Source: Candidatus Saccharimonadales bacterium (GTDB lineage Bacteria > Patescibacteriota > Saccharimonadia > Saccharimonadales > EFPC-124). Taken from it: a stretch of DNA of 64,000 bases. Position 1 is the stretch's first letter; each line of letters opens with the position of its first letter. The translations under genes and the position numbers were made by a program. The stretch is from the NCBI GenBank assembly GCA_035710125.1, contig DASTDY010000070.1, forward strand, positions 25,396 through 89,395, read 5' to 3'. The notes beneath the pieces were generated by a model. That model was not told where the DNA came from and ran no database searches. It saw nothing but the letters and a program-made list of their open reading frames with translations. Shown here piece by piece: positions 5,369 through 63,776 of the stretch.

Positions 5369-5926
5369 ATGGACACCGGGGATTCCCTGTACTCCATTCC
5401 GCTGCTGGGTGCAACCTACAGCGTGTCCGTAGGCCGTGAGAGCGCTAGTCTGGTGCTCGCCCAGGCCATCGAATCGCAAACAGCAAGCATCAGGCATCGT
5501 CTGCCGGCGCGTCCCCACACTCTCTACGGAGGTGAGATCATCGACGGCAAAGAAGATGACGATGGCTTCTTGGCTGACATCAGACTGACGAGGCCGTTTG
5601 AGAGGTCCTCGCTCACCTCACACTTCGACGCGAGCCTGGTGCTGCAGACTGATGGGCAGCGGTACTTCCAGCTGACAACCAGAGCTCCACACAAAAAGGT
5701 GAGCCTGCGCGTCAGCTTCCCGCCCGAAGACGTCCCTACGTGGGTTGGCTTTGCCACCTGGGAGTCAGCCACACCAGAAGGCGCGCTGCTGACATGTGAT
5801 TACGAGTTGGAACGCAAAGAAGACGTTTCCGACGAGGATCACCCCAAGCCGGTTGTGAAGTTCCACAAGAAACTGACAGATGTCGCACCCGGCATCTACG
5901 GTTTCTTGTGGAGCTACTGCAGCTAG
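5369..5926 (+). CDS. Hypothetical protein, high-GC islet
   Basis: 185-aa ORF with no recognisable motifs. About 62% GC against ~48% in flanks. Followed by a GC hairpin. Confidence 0.4.
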   Translation: MDTGDSLYSIPLLGATYSVSVGRESASLVLAQAIESQTASIRHRLPARPHTLYGGEIIDGKEDDDGFLADIRLTRPFERSSLTSHFDASLVLQTDGQRYFQLTTRAPHKKVSLRVSFPPEDVPTWVGFATWESATPEGALLTCDYELERKEDVSDEDHPKPVVKFHKKLTDVAPGIYGFLWSYCS

Positions 5927-5940
5927 AACGTGTGTCGGAA

Positions 5941-5967
5941 CCACCCGGGCCTCGTCGGCCCGGGTGG
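5941..5967 (+). terminator. Perfect 11-bp stem hairpin (ccacccgggcc tcgtc ggcccgggtgg), candidate terminator
   Basis: Inverted repeat read directly from sequence, 14 nt after the stop of the 5369-5926 ORF. Downstream sequence (cgcccgcTTGTTTAT) is only moderately T-rich. Confidence 0.45.
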
Positions 5968-6132
5968 TCGCCCGCTTGTTTATAAAAATTTCGTGGCTAC
6001 CGCCCAACAAATTAGAAAGCATACGTACCCAAACAGGGGTAATGCAGCGATGAGGATGCCGCAGATTCACACGGTAGTCAGTAAAATCACACACCAAAGA
6101 AAGATGGCAGTATCAAAACTGCCATCTTTCTT

Positions 6133-6219
6133 TGGTGGGCGAGGTGGGACTTGAACCCACACGATATTGCTACCACAGGATTTTGAGTCCAGCGCGTCTA
6201 CCAATTCCGCCACTCGCCC
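6133..6219 (-). tRNA. tRNA-Leu (anticodon CAA), class II with long variable arm, CCA encoded
   Basis: Reverse complement GGGCGAGTGGCGGAATTGGTAGACGCGCTGGACTCAAAATCCTG...GTGGGTTCAAGTCCCACCTCGCCCACCA. The acceptor 7 bp pairs, the anticodon loop is CTCAAAA (CAA), and the T-arm is GTGGG/TTCAAGT/CCCAC. Confidence 0.85.
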
Positions 6220-34623: not shown

Positions 34624-34683
34624 ATAAAAGAGGGCCCCAGAAGGGGCGCAGACAGAGTTCGTCTGACAGCCTCTTTTGGGGCG

Positions 34684-35064
34684 CTAGCGGTGACGCCTGT
34701 GACCACGGTCGTAGGACGTCCCCTCGGCTTCTTCCACCTCTTCGAGTTCGTCCCTGAGCTTCTTGAGCTCGGCCTCGAACTCCTCGACGAACGCCATCTG
34801 GAACGGCGCTGCCTCGAGCTGGGCCAGCAGGGCCGGACGGTCGAGGCACTCGGCCGCCTTGCTGCCCGGTTGCACACCGTCGAGCTGCGCCTTGATGAGC
34901 TCGTACGAGTCCATGGCCTTCTTGAGTCGATCGGACAACGCCTGTAACGTCCGCGCCTCGCGGTCGCTGTCGGCCTGGACCTCGGCGAAGGTCTTTTCGT
35001 CGCCTCCAGGGGGAAGCGAGCTGCCGATTGCACGAAGCGCGGCGAGCACATTGCTGTCGAGCAT
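34684..35064 (-). CDS. Hypothetical alpha-helical acidic protein; last gene of a four-gene high-GC operon
   Basis: 126-aa ORF at about 65% GC, E/A/L-rich. Same strand as the three upstream ORFs. Upstream RBS-like GGAG noted. Confidence 0.35.
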   Translation of the reverse strand: MLDSNVLAALRAIGSSLPPGGDEKTFAEVQADSDREARTLQALSDRLKKAMDSYELIKAQLDGVQPGSKAAECLDRPALLAQLEAAPFQMAFVEEFEAELKKLRDELEEVEEAEGTSYDRGHRRHR

Positions 35065-35247
35065 CTGCGGATCCTTAGTTCTCAGAGAGTGGATTTTGCA
35101 ATTACATGCCCCAATATTATAAATTCTATATACAGATCTGTCAAGAGTTGTTTATATAAAACACCCCTGGTTTAAACCCACACTTTCATTAAAAGAAGAG
35201 TGGGTCTGGGGCAGCGACTAACTGCCCCAGGAACCCGCGTTACCTTG

Positions 35248-36763: not shown

Positions 36764-36905
36764 AAAACCCCCTAAAGGTGCAAGGAACGTATGCTACTGT
36801 ACCACAATTTTAGTGCTGCTGCTGTAGTCTGCCTAAAGCGGCGAAAATCGTCGCATTAGGCAGACCCCAGAGCCTCACACAGCGGGTGTGAGGCTCTGGT
36901 TGTGG

Positions 36906-38036
36906 TCAGACCGACTTCTGGTGCGAGAGGAGTTCACAGCTTGCAGGCTCCACGGGTGAGGTGGTGGGGGAGAGGGGCACGTTGTAGATCTTCATGCCAG
37001 GCACCATGGTGCTCGGCAGACCCTTCAGCTGCGCCTCGTGGACCATCACTTCCATGTTCGCCGACAGTGGTTCGCCGGAGTGCCGCAGCACGATCGTCTC
37101 AGCGTTGGGACGCCAGACGACCACCTGCTGCACGCCGTCTTCCCGCTGCTCCACACGCGCGAAGTGCCAGCCACGCCGCGTGAACAGCTCATGAACCGGG
37201 CTCTCCTTGATGAGCACGTGGGCGTAGTCGCGGTTGGACTGGACTGCCCCTTCCGTCAACAGGCGGTACACCTGGACCGCCAGATCAGGACGAAGGTCGA
37301 GCAGCTTGTCGATGGGCTCGAGGAGCTCGTCGACGTTCTGGCTACGAGTGGCCAAGATCGCTCCGTAAAGCCTCAGACCGAGACTGTTGAGCGCCATGCG
37401 CGCGGCCAGCTTGATGCCGTCGAACGGCCCCAGCTTCTTGACGTGGAACAACGCCACGTTCAGCTGGTACGGCGATTCGATCGTCCGCAGGTAGCGCAGG
37501 GCGAGCATCTGGAGTTCCGTGATGCTCGACAACGCCGCGGACTCGTCGCCGCCAGACAGGGCCACGAAACGCCGCTGCATGCTGTTGTGGGCGTTGGCGC
37601 TGAGCACCGCCGACGGGTCGTCGGTGGCCATGCGCTTCACGAACTCGAACAGCCCGCTGTACGTGCCCACGAAACACTGCGCGGTTTCATCGAGCCAGAA
37701 CGCGCGGCGGTGCAGGTGGCTGGTGTCGTACCCGAAGCACAGGGCTTCCAGGAACGAACCGATGTCTGCAGCACTCCAGCCGGCGCGGATCAGGACACCA
37801 ACGTAGGGCAAACCCACGGGGTCGCCTTGGCCGTCGAAGTCCAGGTAGTTGCGCGCGATGCGCAACAGCGCCTCACGGCCTACGCCGTGGACCAACGCGT
37901 GGGCGAAGTAGGTGCCCACGGGGGTGCCATGCGGTAGGCTTTCCGGCTGGACGCCGTCCGGTCTACCCTCCAAAGTTGCTGTCATGACGCACTCCTTTTG
38001 TGCAATCCGTATTCCTGAAAAAGGACGAGTACGCAA
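36906..38036 (-). CDS. Hypothetical protein; first gene of the high-GC operon (likely start at MTATLEGR, ~37986)
   Basis: 376-aa ORF at about 65% GC. The antisense ORF 37038-37937 is R-rich junk. No family recognised. Confidence 0.4.
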   Translation of the reverse strand: MRTRPFSGIRIAQKECVMTATLEGRPDGVQPESLPHGTPVGTYFAHALVHGVGREALLRIARNYLDFDGQGDPVGLPYVGVLIRAGWSAADIGSFLEALCFGYDTSHLHRRAFWLDETAQCFVGTYSGLFEFVKRMATDDPSAVLSANAHNSMQRRFVALSGGDESAALSSITELQMLALRYLRTIESPYQLNVALFHVKKLGPFDGIKLAARMALNSLGLRLYGAILATRSQNVDELLEPIDKLLDLRPDLAVQVYRLLTEGAVQSNRDYAHVLIKESPVHELFTRRGWHFARVEQREDGVQQVVVWRPNAETIVLRHSGEPLSANMEVMVHEAQLKGLPSTMVPGMKIYNVPLSPTTSPVEPASCELLSHQKSV

Positions 38037-38282: not shown

Positions 38283-38882
38283 GTGACCGCAATATTCCAG
38301 ATGCTGGCATGCGTGGTGGTGTTGGCGTCGGCGATCCCCACGGCTATCGCCACCGCCAAGCGCGAGGCCAGACCGCGAATTGCGACATGGTTCATACTGG
38401 TGGTGTTCAACGCCGTCCTTGGCGGAGTGGCGCTAGGCAACGGCGAGCAAGTAACTGCCGTGTTCGCCCTCAGCGCCACCGTCGGCGCCACGCTGGTGCT
38501 GGTTCTGGCGCTCGCAACGAAACCACGGCCGTACGGCACTGCCGATGCAGCCTGCCAAGCACTGGCGTGCCTTTTCATGGCGCTGATTCTGCTCACCGAA
38601 GACCCACAACGGACCGTGGCAACTGTCATGGTTGTGGCAATCGGGCTGCTCTCGGCGCTACCGGCTGTCTACTACCAGCTGCGTTCGCAATCAGACGAGT
38701 TCTGGGGCACCTACCTGGGCTACGCAATGGCGGCAGGAATCATGCTGGCTGTGACTGACCGCGGTGACTTCTTCGCGATCATGTTGCCCCTGTTCATGTT
38801 CAGCAACGGTGGCGCGACCGCACTGCTGCTCCTGGGCACGTGGCTGCGTACACGGGCCGTGCACAAGGCAGCAACGAGTTGA
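38283..38882 (+). CDS. Hypothetical polytopic membrane protein, high-GC islet; GTG start with AGGAGG RBS
   Basis: taGGAGGcgcacGTG. About six hydrophobic helices rich in A/L/V/G. 199 aa. Confidence 0.5.
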   Translation: MTAIFQMLACVVVLASAIPTAIATAKREARPRIATWFILVVFNAVLGGVALGNGEQVTAVFALSATVGATLVLVLALATKPRPYGTADAACQALACLFMALILLTEDPQRTVATVMVVAIGLLSALPAVYYQLRSQSDEFWGTYLGYAMAAGIMLAVTDRGDFFAIMLPLFMFSNGGATALLLLGTWLRTRAVHKAATS

Positions 38883-52170: not shown

Positions 52171-53031
52171 ATGCACTACTCGACAGGAAAGGGACACATC
52201 CCCGTGTTCACGCGTAAGGGAGTGCGTCGCGCACTCGCCACGCTGACGCTGGCGGCAGTCGCCAGCCTCTCAGCAGCACCGATTGCCAATGCCGACCCGA
52301 CCACCAACGACACCGTCACGGCCACCGAGATCGCGGCCGCGCTGACCAAGGCCGACGCGCAGAACTCGGCGACCATCGCCGCGCCCGTGGCGTCCACAGC
52401 GGACGCCGACTCGGCCGCGCAGACACTCACCATCGACGTCCCCAAGGACGCCGACGCGGGCGTCAGCATGAAGTCGACCGACGGCCTGCCCACCCTCACG
52501 GTGGACCTGCCCAACGCCGACAACGCAGCCAACGCCACGCGCCTGCCGGACGGCACGGTGGTGTACCCGTCGAACGACGGCTCGGCCAACGCCGTGATCG
52601 CCGCCGAGGGCGACAGCGCACAGATGATCACGACCATCGCCAACAACGGCGCGCCGACGCACTACGAGTACGGCCTGAAGGTGGCCGGTGGCAGCAACGT
52701 GGTTCTGATGGAGAGCGGCGGCGCCCTGGTGAACGACACCAACGGCAACACGCTGCGGGCCGTGCCGGCTCCGTGGGCGCGTGACGCCAAGGGCGCGACC
52801 GTCCCCTCGCACTACGCGACCAACAACGGCGCGCTCACCCTGGTGGTCGACCACACCAGCGGCAACTACGCGTACCCCATCGTGGCTGACCCCATCTGGA
52901 TCCCGGCCTACCTGGTCTGGCGCATCATCAAGTGCGGCGGCTCGGGCGCGCTGGCGTGGATCACCGCGGGTGGCTTCAACTGGTGGCAGCGCCTGCTCAT
53001 CTCGGTGGGCGCGTGCGTGTTCTCGCTGTAG
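52171..53031 (+). CDS. Hypothetical secreted protein, very high GC (~68%); probable GTG start near 52204 with signal peptide ...ALATLTLAAVASLSAAPIANA/DP
   Basis: Actinobacteria-like signal peptide and A/T/D/G/N-rich mature region. C-terminal hydrophobic/Trp-rich segment (IWIPAYLVWRIIKCGGSGALAWITAGGFNWW). The antisense ORF 52270-53037 is R/G junk. Confidence 0.45.
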   Translation: MHYSTGKGHIPVFTRKGVRRALATLTLAAVASLSAAPIANADPTTNDTVTATEIAAALTKADAQNSATIAAPVASTADADSAAQTLTIDVPKDADAGVSMKSTDGLPTLTVDLPNADNAANATRLPDGTVVYPSNDGSANAVIAAEGDSAQMITTIANNGAPTHYEYGLKVAGGSNVVLMESGGALVNDTNGNTLRAVPAPWARDAKGATVPSHYATNNGALTLVVDHTSGNYAYPIVADPIWIPAYLVWRIIKCGGSGALAWITAGGFNWWQRLLISVGACVFSL

Positions 53032-57890: not shown

Positions 57891-57904
57891 CTTTACAAGA
57901 AGAC

Positions 57905-57952
57905 GTCCGGTCCGCTTCGGAGTTTACAGGTGAACTCCGATAGCGGCCGGAC
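57905..57952. terminator. Long imperfect inverted repeat (gtccggtccgcttcggagtttaca ggtg tgaactccgatagcggccggac) after dprA, between convergent genes
   Basis: About 20 paired bases with a few mismatches, read directly. Lies 15 nt after the dprA stop. Confidence 0.4.
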
Positions 57953-57983
57953 ATTGTCTTCATGCTTTTTAGCACAGCCTGAC

Positions 57984-58472
57984 CTACCACTCGATATACC
58001 GGAACTGATTGCAGAGCGGCAAAAAGGCGAGCTGCTTCAAATTAGGCCGCAGCGCCACCACCAGCTCCAACATCCACGACCCGGAAGCCAAAAAGAAGTC
58101 GCAGACCAGAGAAGGGCAGCCAAGGTCGCTCATCTGTAGGTGACCACGCAAGTGTGACACCTGGAGCTGCAAGTCTAGCTCCCAAAGGAACTTTGCATCA
58201 TCTGGCAACCGCTTGCCACTATGCTGAATCGCCAACTGGCTTTGCCACAATTGGCTCAGCGTGGGCGGACAAGAGTACGGCTTATCAAACACAACCTGGG
58301 AGGTCGCGAATTTTGTGCCGCCGAACCAAACCTGCTTGGTTTCGAGCGCCTCGGCCAATGCCAAGTCCCTGCCTGGCCGCAAGTCCGTAAACGTCCGCCG
58401 GATCGACCCGAGAGTCAGCTCTCGAGGGCTGAGCTCTTCCGCCGTGGGTGTTTCCGCCGCTTTGCTTGTCAT
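57984..58472 (-). CDS. Hypothetical protein, high-GC islet
   Basis: 162-aa ORF at about 60% GC. No motif recognised. Confidence 0.35.
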   Translation of the reverse strand: MTSKAAETPTAEELSPRELTLGSIRRTFTDLRPGRDLALAEALETKQVWFGGTKFATSQVVFDKPYSCPPTLSQLWQSQLAIQHSGKRLPDDAKFLWELDLQLQVSHLRGHLQMSDLGCPSLVCDFFLASGSWMLELVVALRPNLKQLAFLPLCNQFRYIEW

Positions 58473-58686
58473 TTCTTTTTACGCCCCATAACTTTGCTTC
58501 GGAGAGCGCCGTGCTGTCTTGCTAAAAACATGAAAGACCGGCAACGCATAAGCTCGCACTGTAGTCGGCGGGCCGCGTTGGTAAGCTTTGACATTACGCC
58601 GTTTTAACCTTTTTGTCAATGTAGGTCTTGCCAGCTCCCCGTGCTTGCTGTACGATGAGCCACTGAAACCTGTAGTATAAAAAAGC

Positions 58687-60987
58687 ATGAGCAAAAACCT
58701 AGTAATAGTAGAGTCCCCCGCAAAAGCCAAAACCATTGCCAAATACTTAGGCAAAGACTTTGTAGTTAAAAGCAGTTTTGGCCACGTACGCGATTTGCCT
58801 AAAAAAGGCATGAGCGTCGATATTGAGCACAACTTTGAACCAAAATACGAAGTCACCCCAGATAAAAAGAAAACTGTCGCCGAACTTCGCGCCGCCACAA
58901 AAGCCGCCCAAACAGTTTGGCTGGCATCCGATGAAGACCGCGAAGGCGAGGCAATTGCCTGGCACCTAAGTGAGGTGCTCAAATTAAAGCCGGCTAACAC
59001 AAAACGAATTGTATTCCACGAAATCACCAAACCAGCAATCGAAGCCGCCGTAAAAAACCCCCGCACAATAGACATCAAACTGGTGGACGCCCAGCAAGCC
59101 CGCCGTATTTTAGACCGCATTGTGGGGTACGAGCTAAGCCCAGTTTTATGGAAAAAGGTCCGCACGGGCCTCAGCGCTGGCCGCGTACAATCTGTTGCCG
59201 TACGCCTTATTGTTGAACGCGAACGCGAGATAGAGGCATTTACCCCCACTGCCAGCTTTAAAGTCAGCGCCATTTTTACCCTAAAAGACGGCACCGAACT
59301 AAAGGCAGAGGCACCTGTTAAATATGAATCCGAAGCCAAGGCGGCAAAATTCTTAGAACAACTCGCAAAAAGCGACTGCACCATTGCCGATGTCGCCAAG
59401 ACGCCTGGCACCCGTAGCCCAAGCGCGCCGTTTACCACGAGTACACTACAACAAGAGGCATCGCGTAAACTCGGCTACAGCCCTAAACAAACCATGATGC
59501 TCGCCCAACGGCTGTACGAAGAAGGTAACATTACCTACATGCGTACAGACTCATTCAACCTAAGCGCAATTGCCGTTGCCGCCATGTCCGACCTTATCAC
59601 CAAAGAATACGGCGCAGATTACCTACAAGCCCGCAAATACACCACCAAGTCTGCCGGCGCACAAGAGGCACACGAAGCAATCCGTCCTACAGATGTCACC
59701 AAACGTACCGCTGGTGCTGATGCACAGCAGCAAAAATTATATAACCTTATATGGCAACGCGCCGTAGCCAGCCAAATGGCCCAGGCAAAAATAGAAAAGA
59801 CCACCATTACAATTGGGCTGAGCGAAAGCAAAGATACACTAGAAGCCAAAGGCGAAATTGTACTGTTCCCAGGCTTCTTAAAGATATACGGCGATGCCAA
59901 AAACGCCGAAGAAGGGTTGCTCCCCGTAGTCGCTGTAGGCGATCCACTAAAATTGGTGGATGCCGAAGCCGAACAGGTATACAGCCGCGCCCCAAGCCGC
60001 TACACCGAGGCCAGCCTAGTGCGCAAACTAGAAGAACTCGGCATTGGCCGACCAAGCACCTACGCACCGACCATTAGCACCGTACAAGACCGTGGGTACA
60101 TAGAAAAGGCCGACGTAGAAGGCGGGGAACGCGAAATCATCCGTCTAAAATTAAAAAATGGCAACACGACACGCACCCAAGCTATAGAGCCCATTCCGAC
60201 CGATAAAGGCAAACTTGTGCCAACAGATATCGCAAAAGTGGTCACAGACTTTTTAGTGCAGCATTTTCCGAGCGTGATCGACTACGACTTTACAAAAGAC
60301 GTAGAACAGCTATTCGACGATATCGCCGAAGGCAAAGTCACCTGGCAACACATGCTCAAAGGTTTTTATGACCCATTCCACGCCATTGTAGACAAATCTG
60401 CCGACATTAGCCGCGCAGAAGCCATGCAATCGCGCCCACTCGGCAACGATCCCAAATCTGGCCGGCCTGTCAGCGCACGCTTTGGCCGCTACGGCGCAAT
60501 GGTGCAGATGGGCGAAGCAGAAGACGAAGAAAAACCAAAGTTCGCCTCTATACCGGCCGGTAAAAATATAGACACCATCACCCTAGAAGAAGCACTCACA
60601 TTATTCAACCTGCCGCGGGCCCTTGGCGTTACAGACGACGGCGAAGAGATACAAGCCAACATTGGCCGCTTCGGCCCTTACATTAAAGTTGGCAGCCGTT
60701 ATGTCAGCCTTGGCAAAAACGACCCTTACACTGTAGACCTCGCAACCGCCCAGTCCCTACTAAAAGAAGATGCCGAAAAACGCGCCAAAATGACCATCCA
60801 CGACTTTACCAAAGAAGGTATCCGCGTCTTAAATGGCCGCTTCGGCCCTTACATTACCGACGGCAAAAAAAATGTTAAAGTCCCCAAAGGCCAGGAGCCG
60901 ACCGAGCTCACCTTAGAGGACTGCAAAGCCCTCCTAGAAAAAGCACCCGTTAAAACCCGCAAACGCCAAATTAGAAAACGCGCCTAA
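58687..60987 (+). CDS. topA: DNA topoisomerase I
   Basis: MSKNLVIVESPAKAKTIAKYLG...VKSSFGHVRDLP (Toprim). ...YMRTDS... (catalytic Tyr context). C-terminal Lys-rich repeats. 766 aa. Confidence 0.9.
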   Translation: MSKNLVIVESPAKAKTIAKYLGKDFVVKSSFGHVRDLPKKGMSVDIEHNFEPKYEVTPDKKKTVAELRAATKAAQTVWLASDEDREGEAIAWHLSEVLKLKPANTKRIVFHEITKPAIEAAVKNPRTIDIKLVDAQQARRILDRIVGYELSPVLWKKVRTGLSAGRVQSVAVRLIVEREREIEAFTPTASFKVSAIFTLKDGTELKAEAPVKYESEAKAAKFLEQLAKSDCTIADVAKTPGTRSPSAPFTTSTLQQEASRKLGYSPKQTMMLAQRLYEEGNITYMRTDSFNLSAIAVAAMSDLITKEYGADYLQARKYTTKSAGAQEAHEAIRPTDVTKRTAGADAQQQKLYNLIWQRAVASQMAQAKIEKTTITIGLSESKDTLEAKGEIVLFPGFLKIYGDAKNAEEGLLPVVAVGDPLKLVDAEAEQVYSRAPSRYTEASLVRKLEELGIGRPSTYAPTISTVQDRGYIEKADVEGGEREIIRLKLKNGNTTRTQAIEPIPTDKGKLVPTDIAKVVTDFLVQHFPSVIDYDFTKDVEQLFDDIAEGKVTWQHMLKGFYDPFHAIVDKSADISRAEAMQSRPLGNDPKSGRPVSARFGRYGAMVQMGEAEDEEKPKFASIPAGKNIDTITLEEALTLFNLPRALGVTDDGEEIQANIGRFGPYIKVGSRYVSLGKNDPYTVDLATAQSLLKEDAEKRAKMTIHDFTKEGIRVLNGRFGPYITDGKKNVKVPKGQEPTELTLEDCKALLEKAPVKTRKRQIRKRA

Positions 60988-61059
60988 AACCTCTTGCTTT
61001 CTCTGTTAAAAAAAGGTAGAACTAATACAAGCTCACTTTAATTTGTGCGTTTAAAATGC

Positions 61060-61850
61060 TAACCCTCCGCCCTGAGCACGGCGGAGGGGTAGACAGCCAG
61101 GCCAACGGCTACCCCGAAGGCTGAACGTCTGGCTGGGGAACGGCGGGGTCAGCGCCTCGCCGTTCCGTAAAACTTGTGCTGGGTAACACCGCCGAACGGA
61201 CATCCCGGCGAGTGCCAGTGCGGGAGCCAGGGCTTTTTTCCTTTCACCTGGCTGGTGTCAGATAGTTTTCTGTCTGCTCCGGCCTAGAGAAGGACAGAGA
61301 GCTATCTGGCATCGAAAAAACTTGTGCTGTGGAGCACCCCTCGTCGTATTCCACAGCACAGCTGCATCAGGTAACTCTTCGGGGGTCGCCTGATGCAGAG
61401 CCAGACAGATGTGGTCCGAACTCACCCCCGGGAACCACCACATCTGTCTGGCACCTAAACCTCGAGGTGTCTTACTCTCCTGAGACATCTCAAGGGTTGC
61501 TTGTGTCCTGTCATGCTGTCCGACGGAAGGCAGGGCATAAGCACTGGTCAGGGGTTCAGCCCTGGCCATTTCACCCCGATGCCGGTCCAAGAGGTATAGG
61601 TTCGGGGTGAAAAGGGGAGTGCGTGAAGGTTTAGGGATCCCGCGCACTTTGGTTCCAACCGCATCAGCGCGAGGTTGGAACTACAGGGGGCGCGCATGTA
61701 AGAGAGATTCGCCATTCCGTGTGGCTTGAGTCTCCGGTGCGCGCCTCCTGCCTCTTAACCAAAGGCTTGGGCTATCCACCTCCTCGAGGGTAGTCCAAAT
61801 AGGGCCCCCTCTCTGGTAGATCACACTGCCAGAGAGGGGCGCCCCTCTAA
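61060..61850 (+). ncRNA. Candidate large structured ncRNA, copy A (family unassigned)
   Basis: ORF-free, hairpin-dense region. Landmarks: cttgtgctg (61321), agccagacagatgtgg-loop-ccacatctgtctgg hairpin (61399-61453), tcctgcctcttaa (61746). Terminal hairpins ccctctctgg/ccagagaggg and gagggg cg cccctc (61807-61847). Several helices contain G-T pairs only on the plus strand. Confidence 0.35.
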
Positions 61851-61989
61851 CTTGTAACGTTATTCTTATTAGAAGATCTTGACTTACACGGTCGAGAAAA
61901 GGTAGAAATAGTATCAGCGCAACCGCTATGTTCAACCTTAAGTTGGCATTGCTGGCGGCACAAAACGCAGGCGAACTCCACAGCTGCCC

Positions 61990-62560
61990 GAAAGTTCGGC
62001 TCCGGTGACGAAAGACTTCAGACTTGCACTTAGCCTAGTCTTTGGGAACCGCCGGGTAAGGCGTCTGGGCGCCGAAAGCTTGTGCTGCGACACCTTGCGC
62101 TGTCTGCAGCACATATACATCGGCGCCGACGGGTTCCGATGTAGCCAGACAGATGTGGCGCCCACTCCTGGCACCCCCCACATCTGTCTGGCCCAAAAAC
62201 CTCCCGAGTGCTCAAGAGCACACTCGGAGGTGCTTGTGTAGGATCCGGACCTGTCGGCGGACACTTCACAAGCATGTGACCAGGGAACACCACTCCTTGG
62301 TTACAAACACACCTCGTTATGCTCAAGATAGCTGGGTAACGAAGTGTGGGGGAGTACGCGGACTCTGGCGTACTATGACTCTGCCTGGCAGGGCAGAGCC
62401 TCAGGGACGCGCGTCAGTGAGATTCGCTGCACCGTGAATGCAGCTCGAGTCCTGACGCGCGTTCCTGCCTCTTAAATCGGACTGCACGATAAGTCCAAAA
62501 CCATTGCATAGGATCCCATTCGGTTATTTCATACCAGAAAGGGGATCCTTTTTCATTGCT
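61990..62560 (+). ncRNA. Candidate large structured ncRNA, copy B (diverged tandem paralogue of copy A), ending in an intrinsic-terminator-like hairpin + T-run
   Basis: The same landmarks are collinear with copy A at a ~745-bp offset: cttgtgctg (62079), agccagacagatgtgg hairpin (62143-62195), tcctgcctcttaa (62463). Helices corresponding to copy A show compensatory changes, for example tgtgctgtgg/ccacagcaca vs tgtgctgc/gcagcaca, and catcagg/cctgatg vs catcgg/ccgatg. Terminal hairpin aggatccc-N24-gggatcct + TTTTT (62510-62554). Confidence 0.35.
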
Positions 62561-62656
62561 CGAGCGCCTACTAATCCATGTTATCCACTGTTTAAAAGTC
62601 TCACAGCAGAGACTATCTTGTACGCCAAGAAAATGCTATAATAGATTAATAAATTG

Positions 62657-62685
62657 TTGACACTAATAAGCATTTGTGTTACAGT
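62657..62685 (+). promoter_or_regulatory. Candidate sigma-70 promoter for the downstream regulator gene: TTGACA -17- TACAGT with TGn extension
   Basis: ttgaca (62657-62662), 17-nt spacer, tacagt (62680-62685) preceded by tgt. About 47 nt upstream of ATG 62733, with a GAGGAAGG RBS in between. Confidence 0.35.
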
Positions 62686-62732
62686 AATATTAACATTTTG
62701 TAAAATGATGATGAGGAAGGCTTAATTAGACT

Positions 62733-63776
62733 ATGAACGACACTGCCGAAGCCGTCGTTACCCTAAATCTGCAAACTGCTGTCAAGGACATATTGGCAAC
62801 TGTTGAACGTGAGCGCGAGCGCGAAATTATCGCCCGGCGCTTTGGTTTGTATGATCGAAAGGAAACACTCGAACAAATCGGTGAACTCTTAGGTATCACC
62901 CGCGAGCGTGTTCGCCAACTAGAAAAGGCGATTATGATTCGCCTTAAGATTGCCGCCGAAGACAATCTTCCTCACATTGCAAATATCGAAAAACACTTTA
63001 TTCGCCACCTGCACGACCTTGGCCGTGTCGCCAAAGTACACGACCTCGCCAAACGAGCCGGTAACGACACGAGCGACCGCACCAAGGCCCATGTTGCCTT
63101 CTTAGCTGAAATCGCCCCACGCCTTGCCGTGGTAGACGAAAACGACCACTACCACCATGCGGTAGGCATAAAAGAGCACCACAGCGAAGCAGACATTAAA
63201 AAACATGTCGACACCATTGTAAGTACCGTAAAAAAACACGGTGAGCCTATTAGCATTGAAGAGCTTCATGCTAAAGTAGACCATGACCACCCTAGCCACG
63301 TGCGTGCGCTTGCAAGCGTCAGCAAAGAGCTAGCAAGCCTTAAAGACCGTTGGGGGCTTAGCCGCTGGCCAACCGTGAACCCTAAAAACATCCGCGACAA
63401 AATTTACGTGATTTTGCAAGAAAACGGCAAACCGCTGCACTTTAGTGATATTGCCAAGGCTATTAAGGCTTCCGATTTCCGCCGCAAAGATGTTACCACC
63501 CAAGCAATCCACAACGAACTGATTAAAGATGGTCGTTTTGTGTTGATTGGCCGAGGCATATACGCGCTTAAAGATTGGGGCTACAACAAGGGAACCGTTG
63601 CCGATATTATTATCGACATCTTAAACAAAGAGGGCGGCCCCTTGCACCGTGACGAAATCGTAAAACGCGTACTAAAACACCGCCAAGTTAAAGAAACAAC
63701 CATTCTTCTAAACTTGCAGGGCAAACAACGCTTTAAGCGAGTCGCCAAGGCAACCTACGCACTGGTTGAAAGCTAA
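62733..63776 (+). CDS. Predicted transcription factor with unusual architecture: N-terminal sigma-70 region-4 HTH + two C-terminal HARE-HTH domains
   Basis: REREREIIARRFGLYDRKETLEQIGELLGITRERVRQLEKAIMIRLK is a textbook sigma70_r4. KPLHFSDIAKAIKASDF...TTQAIHNELIKDGRFVLIGRGIYALKDWG and GPLHRDEIVKRVLKH...ETTILLNLQGKQRFKRVAKATYALVE both match the HARE-HTH pattern known from the RNAP delta subunit (phF.eIa.......tp.atl...l..D.RFv.vgRGlY.LkeW). Confidence 0.6.
   Translation: MNDTAEAVVTLNLQTAVKDILATVEREREREIIARRFGLYDRKETLEQIGELLGITRERVRQLEKAIMIRLKIAAEDNLPHIANIEKHFIRHLHDLGRVAKVHDLAKRAGNDTSDRTKAHVAFLAEIAPRLAVVDENDHYHHAVGIKEHHSEADIKKHVDTIVSTVKKHGEPISIEELHAKVDHDHPSHVRALASVSKELASLKDRWGLSRWPTVNPKNIRDKIYVILQENGKPLHFSDIAKAIKASDFRRKDVTTQAIHNELIKDGRFVLIGRGIYALKDWGYNKGTVADIIIDILNKEGGPLHRDEIVKRVLKHRQVKETTILLNLQGKQRFKRVAKATYALVES

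Follow-up and report, generated by a model that had tools for sequence, protein, structure and literature searches.

What occupies the 1.7-kb spacer between topA and a sigma70_r4/HARE-HTH gene (the HARE gene) in a Saccharibacteria (TM7) genome, and does it encode an RNA? Saccharibacteria genomes are about 1 Mb and contain very little non-coding DNA. The spacer was analyzed within a window of 64,000 nucleotides and was found to hold two tandem units, A and B, of a hairpin-rich non-coding element (the array, 61030-62555; topA stop codon at 60987). The neighbouring genes, dprA, topA, the HARE gene and the gene for a DUF8128/TrwB-like ATPase, were the same in all relatives, and the array's terminator was directly upstream of a HARE promoter block that is conserved order-wide.

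When the whole 64-kb window was folded in 300-nt windows, 61201-61500 was the most extreme (z -11.6) and all six windows across 60901-62700 ranked within the top 12; no other part of the 64 kb is as structured as the array. Structure in the dprA-topA spacer was mild (z about -3), and the remaining GC-rich islands of the window, examined as possible additional copies, were rejected because their fold z-scores were ordinary. At ≥13 nt, no array hairpin recurred elsewhere in the 64-kb window beyond chance.

Anatomy and coding potential of the two units

The features of the array are as follows.

60994-61022, plus strand: promoter-like box of unit A (TTGCTT, 17-nt spacer, TAGAAC), starting 6 nt past the topA stop codon
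61030-61850, plus strand: unit A, about 820 nt (MFE -457 kcal/mol, z -14.8)
61059-61166, plus strand: unit A, three unit-specific 5′ hairpins
61173-61313, plus strand: unit A, first CTTGTGCTG module
61322-61611, plus strand: unit A, core helices Ha-Hg
61400-61452, plus strand: unit A, helix Hc (GCCAGACAGATGTGGT / ACCACATCTGTCTGGC), with arms identical to those of unit B and a different loop
61612-61756, plus strand: unit A, four-way junction domain, in which closing helix P (AAGGGG/CCTCTT) surrounds the abutting hairpins Hh, Hi and Hj; Hj holds the GAGATTCGC inner helix, and the tail is CCUGCCUCUUAA
61739-61851, plus strand: unit A, 3′ module (CCUGCCUC tail, Hk and hairpin Hl)
61767-61798, plus strand: unit A, Hk
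61802-61844, plus strand: unit A, GGGCCCCCUC hairpin Hl, with a conserved single-nucleotide bulge (GGGG-N-GCC)
61879-61908, plus strand: promoter-like box of unit B (TTGACT, 18-nt spacer, TAGAAA)
61915-62555, plus strand: unit B, about 640 nt (MFE -294 kcal/mol, z -10.6)
61915-62075, plus strand: unit B, its own 5′ domain
62079-62348, plus strand: unit B, core helices Ha-Hg
62144-62192, plus strand: unit B, helix Hc, whose 15-bp stem is shared with unit A
62349-62471, plus strand: unit B, four-way junction domain (P = GGGG/CCTC around Hh, Hi and Hj)
62479-62496, plus strand: unit B, Hk
62510-62554, plus strand: intrinsic terminator of unit B and of the whole array (AGGATCCC...GGGGATCCT, then TTTTT; hairpin 62510-62549)

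The MFE folds of A and B contained 12 helices in identical order. Every landmark that the earlier note had described as shared, in order, by two copies was located: CTTGTGCTG at 61173, 61323 and 62079, AGCCAGACAGATGTGG...CCACATCTGTCTGGC at 61399-61452 and 62143-62192 (arms 100% identical between A and B, loops different), TGCTTGTGT...AAGCA at 61498-61543 and 62231-62274, GAGATTCGC at 61706 and 62420, and TCCTGCCTCTTAA at 61746 and 62463. Its reading of the end of copy B as a hairpin followed by a T-run held as well. Copies of the landmarks are 740-758 bp apart in the 5′ portion of the units and 715-717 bp apart in the 3′ portion, and local alignment of the two units gave z = 31-42 over mononucleotide shuffles. 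TRF reported no tandem repeat in the array, and a repeat search for regularly spaced, near-identical short repeats of the CRISPR type returned only two-unit families.

The region is non-coding. A Pfam search with the five longest ORFs of the array gave no match, the longest ORF (129 aa) had no homologue among 5.8 billion proteins, and no peptide was conserved between loci in a cross-species comparison; these searches, which found no protein-coding homologue, bear out the view of the earlier note that the region lacks a credible ORF. Indels between A and B were not multiples of three, and no small hydrophobic ORF preceded by a Shine-Dalgarno (SD) sequence was present in any hairpin-array spacer. 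The topA-HARE spacer of one assembly, L004, holds a 49-aa hydrophobic ORF.

For known RNAs, the whole window was run through cmscan against Rfam 15 at gathering thresholds, as the earlier note had proposed, and only two tRNAs were reported, both outside the array. At E ≤ 10, 60900-62750 yielded only chance hairpin matches to miRNA and snoRNA models (best 22 bits, against a miRNA cut-off of 88), and ARAGORN found no tRNA or tmRNA gene in 60900-62800. Searches of phages, plasmids and viral contigs revealed no similarity to the array, the exact pattern GAGATTCGC...TCCTGCCTCTTAA had 0 matches when GTDB species genomes were scanned, and IscB, OapA and prophage-type genes were absent among the neighbours. 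Literature searches on ncRNAs of TM7 or CPR that are large or structured turned up a single TM7 motif, the unrelated lysM-TM7.

Relatives, covariation and strand

Units of the same kind, one to three per genome, were present in the same topA-HARE spacer of 11 other related Saccharimonadales assemblies; genomes of this group came from soil and rhizosphere samples. The array-bearing set (n = 12: the window, L001, L002, L081, L161-L164, L167, L168, L170 and L172; HARE identity at least 82%) had a GC-rich hairpin array at the topA-HARE locus in every member, and this presence in close relatives supplies the conservation at homologous loci to which the earlier note had looked. A shorter candidate array was seen in L005 (HARE identity 79%), and in more distant relatives the spacer was 190-270 bp long and AT-rich. 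The family is confined to the topA-HARE spacer of one Saccharimonadales subclade. Its units follow a common plan of a sigma70-like box, abutting hairpins, a four-way junction and then a CCUGCCYC tail, with the GGCCCCCUC hairpin in most units and a plus-strand terminator at the end of nearly all. When the units were compared by blastn with all the loci collected, the HARE promoter block was the sole match; at 82-90% identity of the flanking proteins, primary sequence was essentially unalignable from one species to another.

The HARE gene, which the earlier note had thought an intriguing neighbour, did not prove informative. It was found across Patescibacteria (8000 matches), and nothing links it to the element, because even its closer Saccharimonadales homologues mostly have element-free spacers.

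Homology was followed further with covariance models. R1 was a single-sequence model seeded with the four-way junction domain of unit A. It scored 49.2 bits (E 1e-9) on the junction domain of unit B and 17-30 bits on plus-strand spacers of seven other species, with 14-bit matches in L002 and L081; the best non-target in the window reached 14.9 bits, and the ten best matches were all on the plus strand. Junction domains homologous to that of unit A were found in eight other species. In the R1-fitted alignment, 94% of cells were paired, the long-range closing helix included, versus 57% in shuffles, although these strongest covariation numbers come from model-fitted alignments of hairpin-rich sequence and so lean towards the model. 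R2, built from L001, L161 and L168 only, was searched against both strands of the window, and its top match was the 3′ module of unit A (20.2 bits, E 8e-4; next match 10.9 bits). The junction and the 3′ hairpin were thus recovered reciprocally by covariance models, on the plus strand only, and neither R1 nor R2 detected another copy in the 64-kb window.

A structure-guided alignment of the A and B junction domains contained 57 pairs, of which 97% were paired; nine pairs had changed on both sides and six on one side with pairing preserved, three cells were broken, and three G·U pairs were kept in both copies. In sequence-only pairwise MAFFT alignments, changed pairs were paired no more often than chance, and the structure conservation index on MAFFT alignments was marginal (0-3 sd above the null). 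Outside well-aligned blocks such as the junction, the compensatory pattern proposed by the earlier note is one of hairpin replacing hairpin, with no demonstrable covariation by column. After 40-55% divergence, partners folded 6-11 sd better than same-pattern partners with randomised replacements.

For a functional RNA, stems of such length and perfection are unusual, and stable UUCG or GNRA tetraloops were not enriched on the plus strand. Loops contained 34% C and 18% G (commonest words CCC, CAC, ACA and TCC). The C-rich loops were considered as anti-SD-like seeds, a mechanism that was dropped because loop C-richness, like the A-richness of linkers, was only about 1.2-fold above shuffles.

Several signals favour the plus strand. 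Against shuffles, the minus strands of A and B each had z -8.2, less extreme than the plus-strand values listed, and the MFE of unit A was -378 kcal/mol on the minus strand versus -457 kcal/mol on the plus strand. Across the 12 species, interior G·U pairs numbered 247 on the plus and 176 on the minus strand, A·C mismatches 28 and 70, and summed MFE was -5373 and -5073, respectively; MFE favoured the plus strand although, among the 11 spacers whose bases were counted, 10 had at least as much C as G. Motifs were biased in the same direction (plus versus minus: GCCCCCT, 8 loci versus 2; CTGCCCC, 6 versus 1; RMTTGTK, 16 versus 3), and the T-runs of unit-end terminators lay on the plus strand for nearly every unit in the window and its relatives. 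On the minus strand, the A-rich linkers create terminator-like sites (hairpin plus GUUUU). Together, the G·U/A·C asymmetry, folding energies, motifs and terminators agree with the plus-strand transcription that the earlier note had read from G-U pairing.

The boxes before units A and B are putative promoters, judged from their sequence and placement. The box of unit A is repeated before unit B, and most relatives have a TTGCnT-N17-(G/C)GTAnnA box directly after topA (spacer 16 nt in L161, 14 nt in L168). A promoter-like box also precedes internal units, past the terminator of the preceding unit, in the window, L164, L081, L162 and L167, and the tRNA promoter TTGGAT-N18-TATAGA is similar to it. 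Position 6 of the -10 elements is not the canonical T, the boxes of A and B were not called by a generic promoter scan, and a loose promoter regular expression gave too many chance matches across the window to be informative. Read-through from topA may also reach unit A, as the stretch from the topA stop codon to unit A contains no terminator.

Interpretation and rival explanations

We consider it probable that the array belongs to a real family of plus-strand structured ncRNA genes, and the data support a novel, lineage-restricted large ncRNA family. The two units would be tandem paralogous genes, each giving a structured non-coding RNA of about 0.6-0.8 kb and each starting at its own sigma70-like promoter box, with topA read-through perhaps contributing to unit A. 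Each RNA is predicted to fold as "beads on a string", hairpins of 10-25 bp joined by linkers of 0-2 nt or by A-rich linkers of the CUAAAAC type, followed by a perfect four-way junction, the CCUGCCYC tail, often the bulged GGCCCCCUC hairpin, and an intrinsic terminator. The family would evolve by internal and whole-unit duplication, with selection acting mainly on hairpin formation and less on sequence. As to what such RNAs do, we tentatively suggest a trans-acting modular hairpin scaffold or decoy, a possibility rather than a likelihood, which would offer numerous double-stranded stems to a partner (protein or RNase) that binds stems or dsRNA, at a dosage set by the number of hairpins and units.

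The hairpins might instead work only in cis, as a long structured topA 3′ UTR (stabiliser or terminator) or as a transcriptional insulator before the HARE promoters. This is unlikely. Transcripts of topA should indeed enter the array, which is always at this one locus and closes with a strong terminator immediately before the promoter block conserved order-wide, and long perfect hairpins are the usual terminator style of this genome; but relatives manage with element-free spacers of 190-270 bp, the promoter-like box recurs before internal units in five genomes, and the four-way junction and bulged 3′ hairpin are conserved. Nor would a stabiliser or terminator need 0.6-1.7 kb with a dozen ordered helices. 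Similarly improbable is an origin at the DNA level, with a functionless RNA: palindromes produced by duplication and intra-strand template switching, or cruciform-prone supercoiling or DNA-binding repeats near topA. The junction's long-range closing helix makes sense only in a single strand, both MFE and the G·U/A·C imbalance single out one strand over the 12 species, motifs are strand-specific and units end in terminators, stability is 6-11 sd above the neutral expectation after 40-55% divergence, and the element has been retained in a clade of reduced genomes. What speaks for such an origin is that the stems are long and nearly perfect, good folding is seen on the minus strand too, sequence turns over extremely fast, unfitted alignments lack column-wise covariation and RNA-type tetraloops are missing.

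We regard it as very unlikely that the array is a highly divergent member of a described class (GOLLD, ROOL, OLE, HEARO/omega RNA, raiA, 6S/Ms1, RNase P, tmRNA or an ORF-less group II intron). Apart from a length of 0.6-0.8 kb and the lack of coding, nothing points that way: the region had no Rfam 15 family at gathering score, nothing from ARAGORN and no IscB, OapA or prophage-type neighbour. There is just as little reason to expect a coding or toxin-antitoxin locus, whether tandem type I-like repeats with tiny toxic peptides or the remnant of a mobile element. Type I loci (LDR, Sib/QUAD, hok-like) also consist of tandem, fast-evolving, structured intergenic units of a few hundred nucleotides, the array's 0.6-0.8-kb repeats with their own putative promoter and terminator recall E. 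coli LDR and QUAD/Sib, and the hydrophobic ORF of L004 would fit; the hairpin-array spacers, however, contain no SD-preceded hydrophobic small ORF and no conserved peptide, A/B indels ignore the reading frame, and neither similarity to phages, plasmids or viral contigs nor another copy in the window was found.

Comparison with known systems and meaning

GOLLD, ROOL, OLE and raiA RNAs are 0.2-0.8 kb long, non-coding, apparently independently transcribed, heavily structured and narrow or patchy in phylogeny (PMC12286853, PMC12968392, and general knowledge). The units of the array are likewise large, non-coding, heavily structured and narrowly distributed, with transcription presumed here. They differ in having no Rfam match, few conserved nucleotides, a single multi-helix junction and tandem paralogues, and in being unalignable between species with flanking proteins 82-90% identical. 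The likeness to OLE, GOLLD and ROOL suggested by the earlier note therefore extends to size and not to ornateness, the units being mostly abutting simple hairpins; the array is a modular hairpin array, not an ornate RNA of the GOLLD/ROOL/OLE type. Characteristic neighbours are a prophage or tRNA for GOLLD and ROOL, oapA/B/C for OLE and IscB for HEARO, whereas those of the array are dprA, topA, the HARE gene and the DUF8128/TrwB-like ATPase gene.

CsrB/CsrC and RsmX/Y/Z are modular hairpin arrays of variable hairpin number and fast turnover, with duplicated, sometimes tandem, paralogues and their own promoter and Rho-independent terminator. From general knowledge, such sponge sRNAs have the organization that the array most resembles. 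Their GGA (ANGGA) loop motifs, however, were absent from the commonest words of the array's loops, which are C-rich and G-poor; its stems are 10-25 bp rather than short, and its units two to three times longer. REP/BIME elements, palindromic hairpins clustered in intergenic DNA behind a gene, have historically been associated with binding of topoisomerase or gyrase. The array is also a palindromic hairpin cluster in intergenic DNA, downstream of topA, but each of its hairpins is unique, none recurring in the 64 kb as the dispersed palindromes of REP/BIME or MITE elements would, and it has ordered orthologous helices, a putative promoter and a terminator.

A further and more doubtful reading is that the array represents an unrecognised "hairpin-array" RNA class of episymbiotic Saccharibacteria, which might serve as a decoy or sponge for a nuclease or dsRNA-binding factor of host, phage or self, or might form a self-assembling particle. 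ROOL and GOLLD self-assemble into higher-order RNA particles. Growth and loss by duplication, homogenisation within genomes and near-complete divergence between species would, on this reading, be a signature typical of conflict systems.

No large ncRNA for Saccharibacteria was found in Rfam 15 or in the literature searched. That 0.5-1.7 kb of non-coding DNA is kept in roughly 1-Mb genomes argues for function, and the clade probably keeps and repeatedly duplicates this ORF-free, strongly structured and apparently transcribed sequence at a fixed locus for a reason. The array is a warning case for covariation methods, since sequence-based alignment fails despite conserved architecture, and it is a concrete target for metatranscriptomics, structure probing and cryo-EM. 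If transcription is confirmed, it would represent a new large bacterial RNA family with an unusual architecture, a string of long abutting hairpins with one perfect four-way junction, and an unusual mode of evolution, with structure retained, hardly any constraint on sequence, and tandem paralogues either homogenised or maintained for long.

Two structured units in the topA-HARE spacer

The spacer between topA and the sigma70_r4/HARE-HTH gene (the HARE gene) is 1745 bp long and houses both units, A and B, as follows:

58687-60987, plus strand: topA (Toprim, Topoisom_bac, C-terminal repeats)
61030-61850: unit A
61915-62555: unit B
62575-62732: block 5′ of the HARE gene, containing a DnaA-box-like TTATCCAC(A/T) at 62581-62589, a small hairpin GTCTC-ACAGCA-GAGAC, and an extended -10 element TGCTATAAT followed by TTGACA-N17-TACAGT
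62733-63776, plus strand: HARE gene, encoding a protein 100% identical to one from a Candidatus Saccharimonadales metagenome-assembled genome in NCBI

All landmarks described in the earlier note were recovered in two copies and in the same order, with A and B 740-758 bp apart over their 5′ halves and 715-717 bp apart over their 3′ halves. Local alignment of A with B gave z = 31-42 over shuffles. The MFE folds of the two units shared about a dozen identically ordered helices (Ha-Hg, the junction Hh/Hi/Hj, Hk and a terminal hairpin), with fold z-scores against dinucleotide shuffles of -14.8 for A and -10.6 for B (reverse strands, -8.2). When the 64 kb were scanned in 300-nt segments, 61201-61500 was the most extreme (z -11.6), all six segments over 60901-62700 ranked in the top twelve, and the hairpins of the units, sought elsewhere in the window, did not recur. 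From the landmarks, alignment, fold z-scores, scan and non-recurrence, the tandem structured copies are real and far beyond chance.

Within helix Hc (61400-61452 and 62144-62192), both arms are 100% identical between A and B over 15-16 bp and the loop has diverged, a pattern not easily made by one conversion tract. The stem sequence may be under selection, or conversion may have acted on each arm separately. Unit A and unit X of the related locus L164 each carry an internal duplication of a module in which the CTTGTGCTG hairpin is combined with two further hairpins.

Elsewhere in the window, intergenic perfect hairpins of 12-20 bp were observed at 5859-5916, 5940-5975, 6093-6137 and 36827-36900, and the one next to the tRNA at 6136-6219 has a stem of 20 bp; terminators in this genome seem typically to be built on long perfect stems. 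The dprA-topA spacer (57891-58686, 797 bp) has a strong hairpin directly 3′ of dprA, a 162-aa minus-strand ORF without Pfam match and a fold z of only about -3 on both strands; in relatives, a minus-strand gene of 81-123 aa is called there. GC-rich islands (0.61-0.69 GC vs about 0.50 for the genome) at 1245-2597, 34680-35069, 36906-38036, 38283-38882 and 52171-53031 contain long ORFs, some on both strands, with zero Pfam matches and unremarkable fold z, and could represent new genes or horizontal acquisitions.

The locus in related Saccharimonadales

The gene order dprA-topA-HARE is kept across Saccharimonadales. The earlier note called the HARE gene an intriguing neighbor, but because this gene is distributed across Patescibacteria and most of its closer homologues in Saccharimonadales have a spacer free of the element, a functional link between the two is not indicated. 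The block at 62575-62732 is conserved order-wide and may comprise a regulatory box and two promoters in tandem; a single DnaA-like box, and no cluster, was found. In all close relatives the HARE gene is followed by a coupling-protein-like ATPase of about 950 aa (DUF8128, TrwB_AAD_bind, TraG-D_C; L161:5654-8596, L162:5719-8577, L167:5686-8496), before which the window stops.

Homology searches with the two copies gave a split outcome: BLAST detected almost no similarity between the window's units and those of other species, the sole alignable part of the spacer being the 160-bp HARE promoter block (62537-62727), and hairpin arrays were nevertheless present at the same locus. Eleven other assemblies, which are every sampled assembly with a HARE protein identity to the window of at least 82% other than L004, have ORF-free, hairpin-packed spacers of 0.5-1.6 kb (GC 0.48-0.62); this near-absence of similarity to the window's units contrasts with flanking protein identities of 82-90% for HARE and 76-85% for topA.

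Units per topA-HARE spacer in the 11 assemblies
One unit: L001, L002, L161, L163, L168, L170, L172
Two or more units: L081, L162, L164, L167

The array of L005 (79% HARE identity) is shorter and less certain, and distant members (60-74%; L007-L010, L084, L085) have AT-rich spacers of 190-270 bp. In L004 (84%) and L171 (77%), a small ORF occupies the spacer instead of a hairpin array, encoding a 49-aa hydrophobic peptide (L004:5554-6000) and 131 aa without Pfam match (L171:3850-4500), respectively.

Read from the sequences, units across species follow one plan despite sequence turnover:

Promoter-like box TTGCnT-N17-(G/C)GTAnnA, directly 3′ of the topA stop or the preceding unit's terminator (spacing 16 nt in L161, 14 nt in L168, 18 nt in unit B), resembling the promoters of the window's tRNA and HARE gene
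Run of 10-25 bp hairpins, abutting or joined by A-rich linkers, e.g., CUAAAAC
Perfect four-way junction, with a short G-rich/C-rich helix P around three abutting hairpins, the last closing with CAGG...CCUG
CCUGCCYC tail, 3′ of the junction
Hairpin GGCCCCCUC.../...GAGGGG-N-GCC, in many units, with a conserved one-nucleotide bulge
Intrinsic terminator with T-run, plus strand, at the unit end

Units of one genome can far outscore orthologues (A-B, z 42; L164 X-Y, z 59; A-L164 X, only 5). Between L081 and L167, alignment gave z = 10 for the first units, 30 for the second units and only 2-3 for first against second, and these alignments indicate that first and second units are ancient paralogues with separate orthologous counterparts.

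Conservation of structure and strand

R1, a covariance model seeded with the junction of unit A only, matched unit B with 49 bits (E 1e-9). With filters off, R1 gave plus-strand matches of 17-30 bits in the spacers of L162 (two), L161, L167 (two), L163, L164 (unit Y) and L001, at sites predicted beforehand by eye; the plus-strand match in L168 was away from the predicted site, and L164 X, L002 and L081 gave 14-15 bits. In the 64-kb window, the highest-scoring non-target had 14.9 bits. The top ten R1 matches were all on the plus strand. For the reciprocal test, R2 was built with no sequences other than those 3′ modules contributed by L001, L161 and L168; its top window match on either strand was 61739-61851, the tail and bulged hairpin of unit A (20.2 bits, E 8e-4; next best, 10.9 bits), and weak plus-strand matches were correctly placed at unit 3′ ends in L163, L162 and L167.

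The R1-fitted alignment (nine sequences, seven other species) had 94% of cells paired vs 57% in shuffles, both sides changed in 48 of 57 pairs, and long-range helix P 90% paired with AU, UA, GC and CG variants, although fitted alignments are biased to the model and a multi-hairpin model will fit hairpin-rich sequence. Between A and B, 97% of the 57 junction pairs were paired; nine had changed on both sides, and both copies kept G·U at three. In MAFFT sequence-only alignments of the three alignable pairs, changed pairs were no more often canonical than in a permutation null. The structure conservation index was just 0-3 sd above null. After 40-55% divergence, the real partner folded 6-11 sd better than a same-pattern partner with randomized bases, and structure is clearly preserved through divergence. 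Hairpins are thus retained at equivalent places with their sequences largely replaced, and column-wise covariation is not established by the alignments used.

Across 12 species, the plus and minus strands had 247 vs 176 interior G·U pairs, 28 vs 70 A·C single mismatches and a total MFE of -5373 vs -5073 kcal/mol, although 10 of the 11 spacers whose bases were counted had at least as much C as G. Motifs were also strand-specific: GCCCCCT (8 loci on plus, 2 on minus), CTGCCCC (6 and 1), AGGGGAG (5 and 0) and, across loci, RMTTGTK (16 and 3). Together with box orientation, terminators, plus-only model matches and helix P, possible on a single strand only, these signals point to the units being a predicted plus-strand transcript. 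Against this, stable RNA tetraloops were not enriched, stems are unusually perfect, and on the minus strand the A-rich linkers give rise to hairpin+GUUUU sites that look like terminators. Several such sites lie inside the element at 61170-62230, and four of five sites in a generic scan were on the minus strand.

A candidate family of large non-coding RNAs

The absence of a credible ORF was borne out: the five longest ORFs had no Pfam match, the longest (129 aa, minus strand) had zero homologues among 5.8 billion proteins, no stop-to-stop peptide of at least 18 aa was conserved across the species' spacers, an SD-preceded hydrophobic mini-ORF was absent from every hairpin-array spacer, and A/B indel lengths are not multiples of three, so that a type I TA-like or coding locus is poorly supported. 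The same holds for a very divergent member of a known RNA family, since the Rfam 15 scan called for earlier gave zero matches at gathering thresholds (at E≤10 on the units, just hairpins that resemble miRNA and snoRNA models by chance) and ARAGORN found no tRNA or tmRNA in the region. A REP/BIME array was rejected, the element's hairpins being unique within the 64 kb, as was a CRISPR-type repeat array, TRF having found no short-period array. No similar sequence was found in phage, plasmid and viral-contig collections, and a literature search turned up no large ncRNA described from TM7 or CPR.

The earlier note proposed a candidate large plus-strand ncRNA in two tandem copies. The reading with most support is that these are tandem paralogues from a family of large non-coding plus-strand RNAs that is restricted to one lineage and built as modular hairpin arrays; the family plan in relatives and the lack of coding and Rfam matches agree with it. 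It competes with a role solely in cis, as a topA 3′ UTR or an insulator before the HARE promoters, and with neutral or DNA-level accumulation of palindromes. Retention in genomes of about 1 Mb and divergence that preserves structure argue for function.

We rate the element among the large structured bacterial ncRNAs. The suggested resemblance to OLE, GOLLD and ROOL stands for size and independence, which raiA shares, but their junction-rich, nucleotide-conserved architecture is absent and their models gave no matches. The closest organization is that of CsrB/Rsm-type sponge RNAs, with modular hairpins in variable number, duplicated genes and their own (here predicted) promoter and terminator, but the defining GGA loops are absent. 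Because sequence and hairpin number are free to vary, the RNA family's function is suggested to depend on presenting many stems, not on a defined fold for catalysis or ligand binding. We therefore favor, as a tentative inference that taken alone is rather unlikely, an RNA that would act in trans as a scaffold or decoy, with a partner that binds stems or dsRNA.
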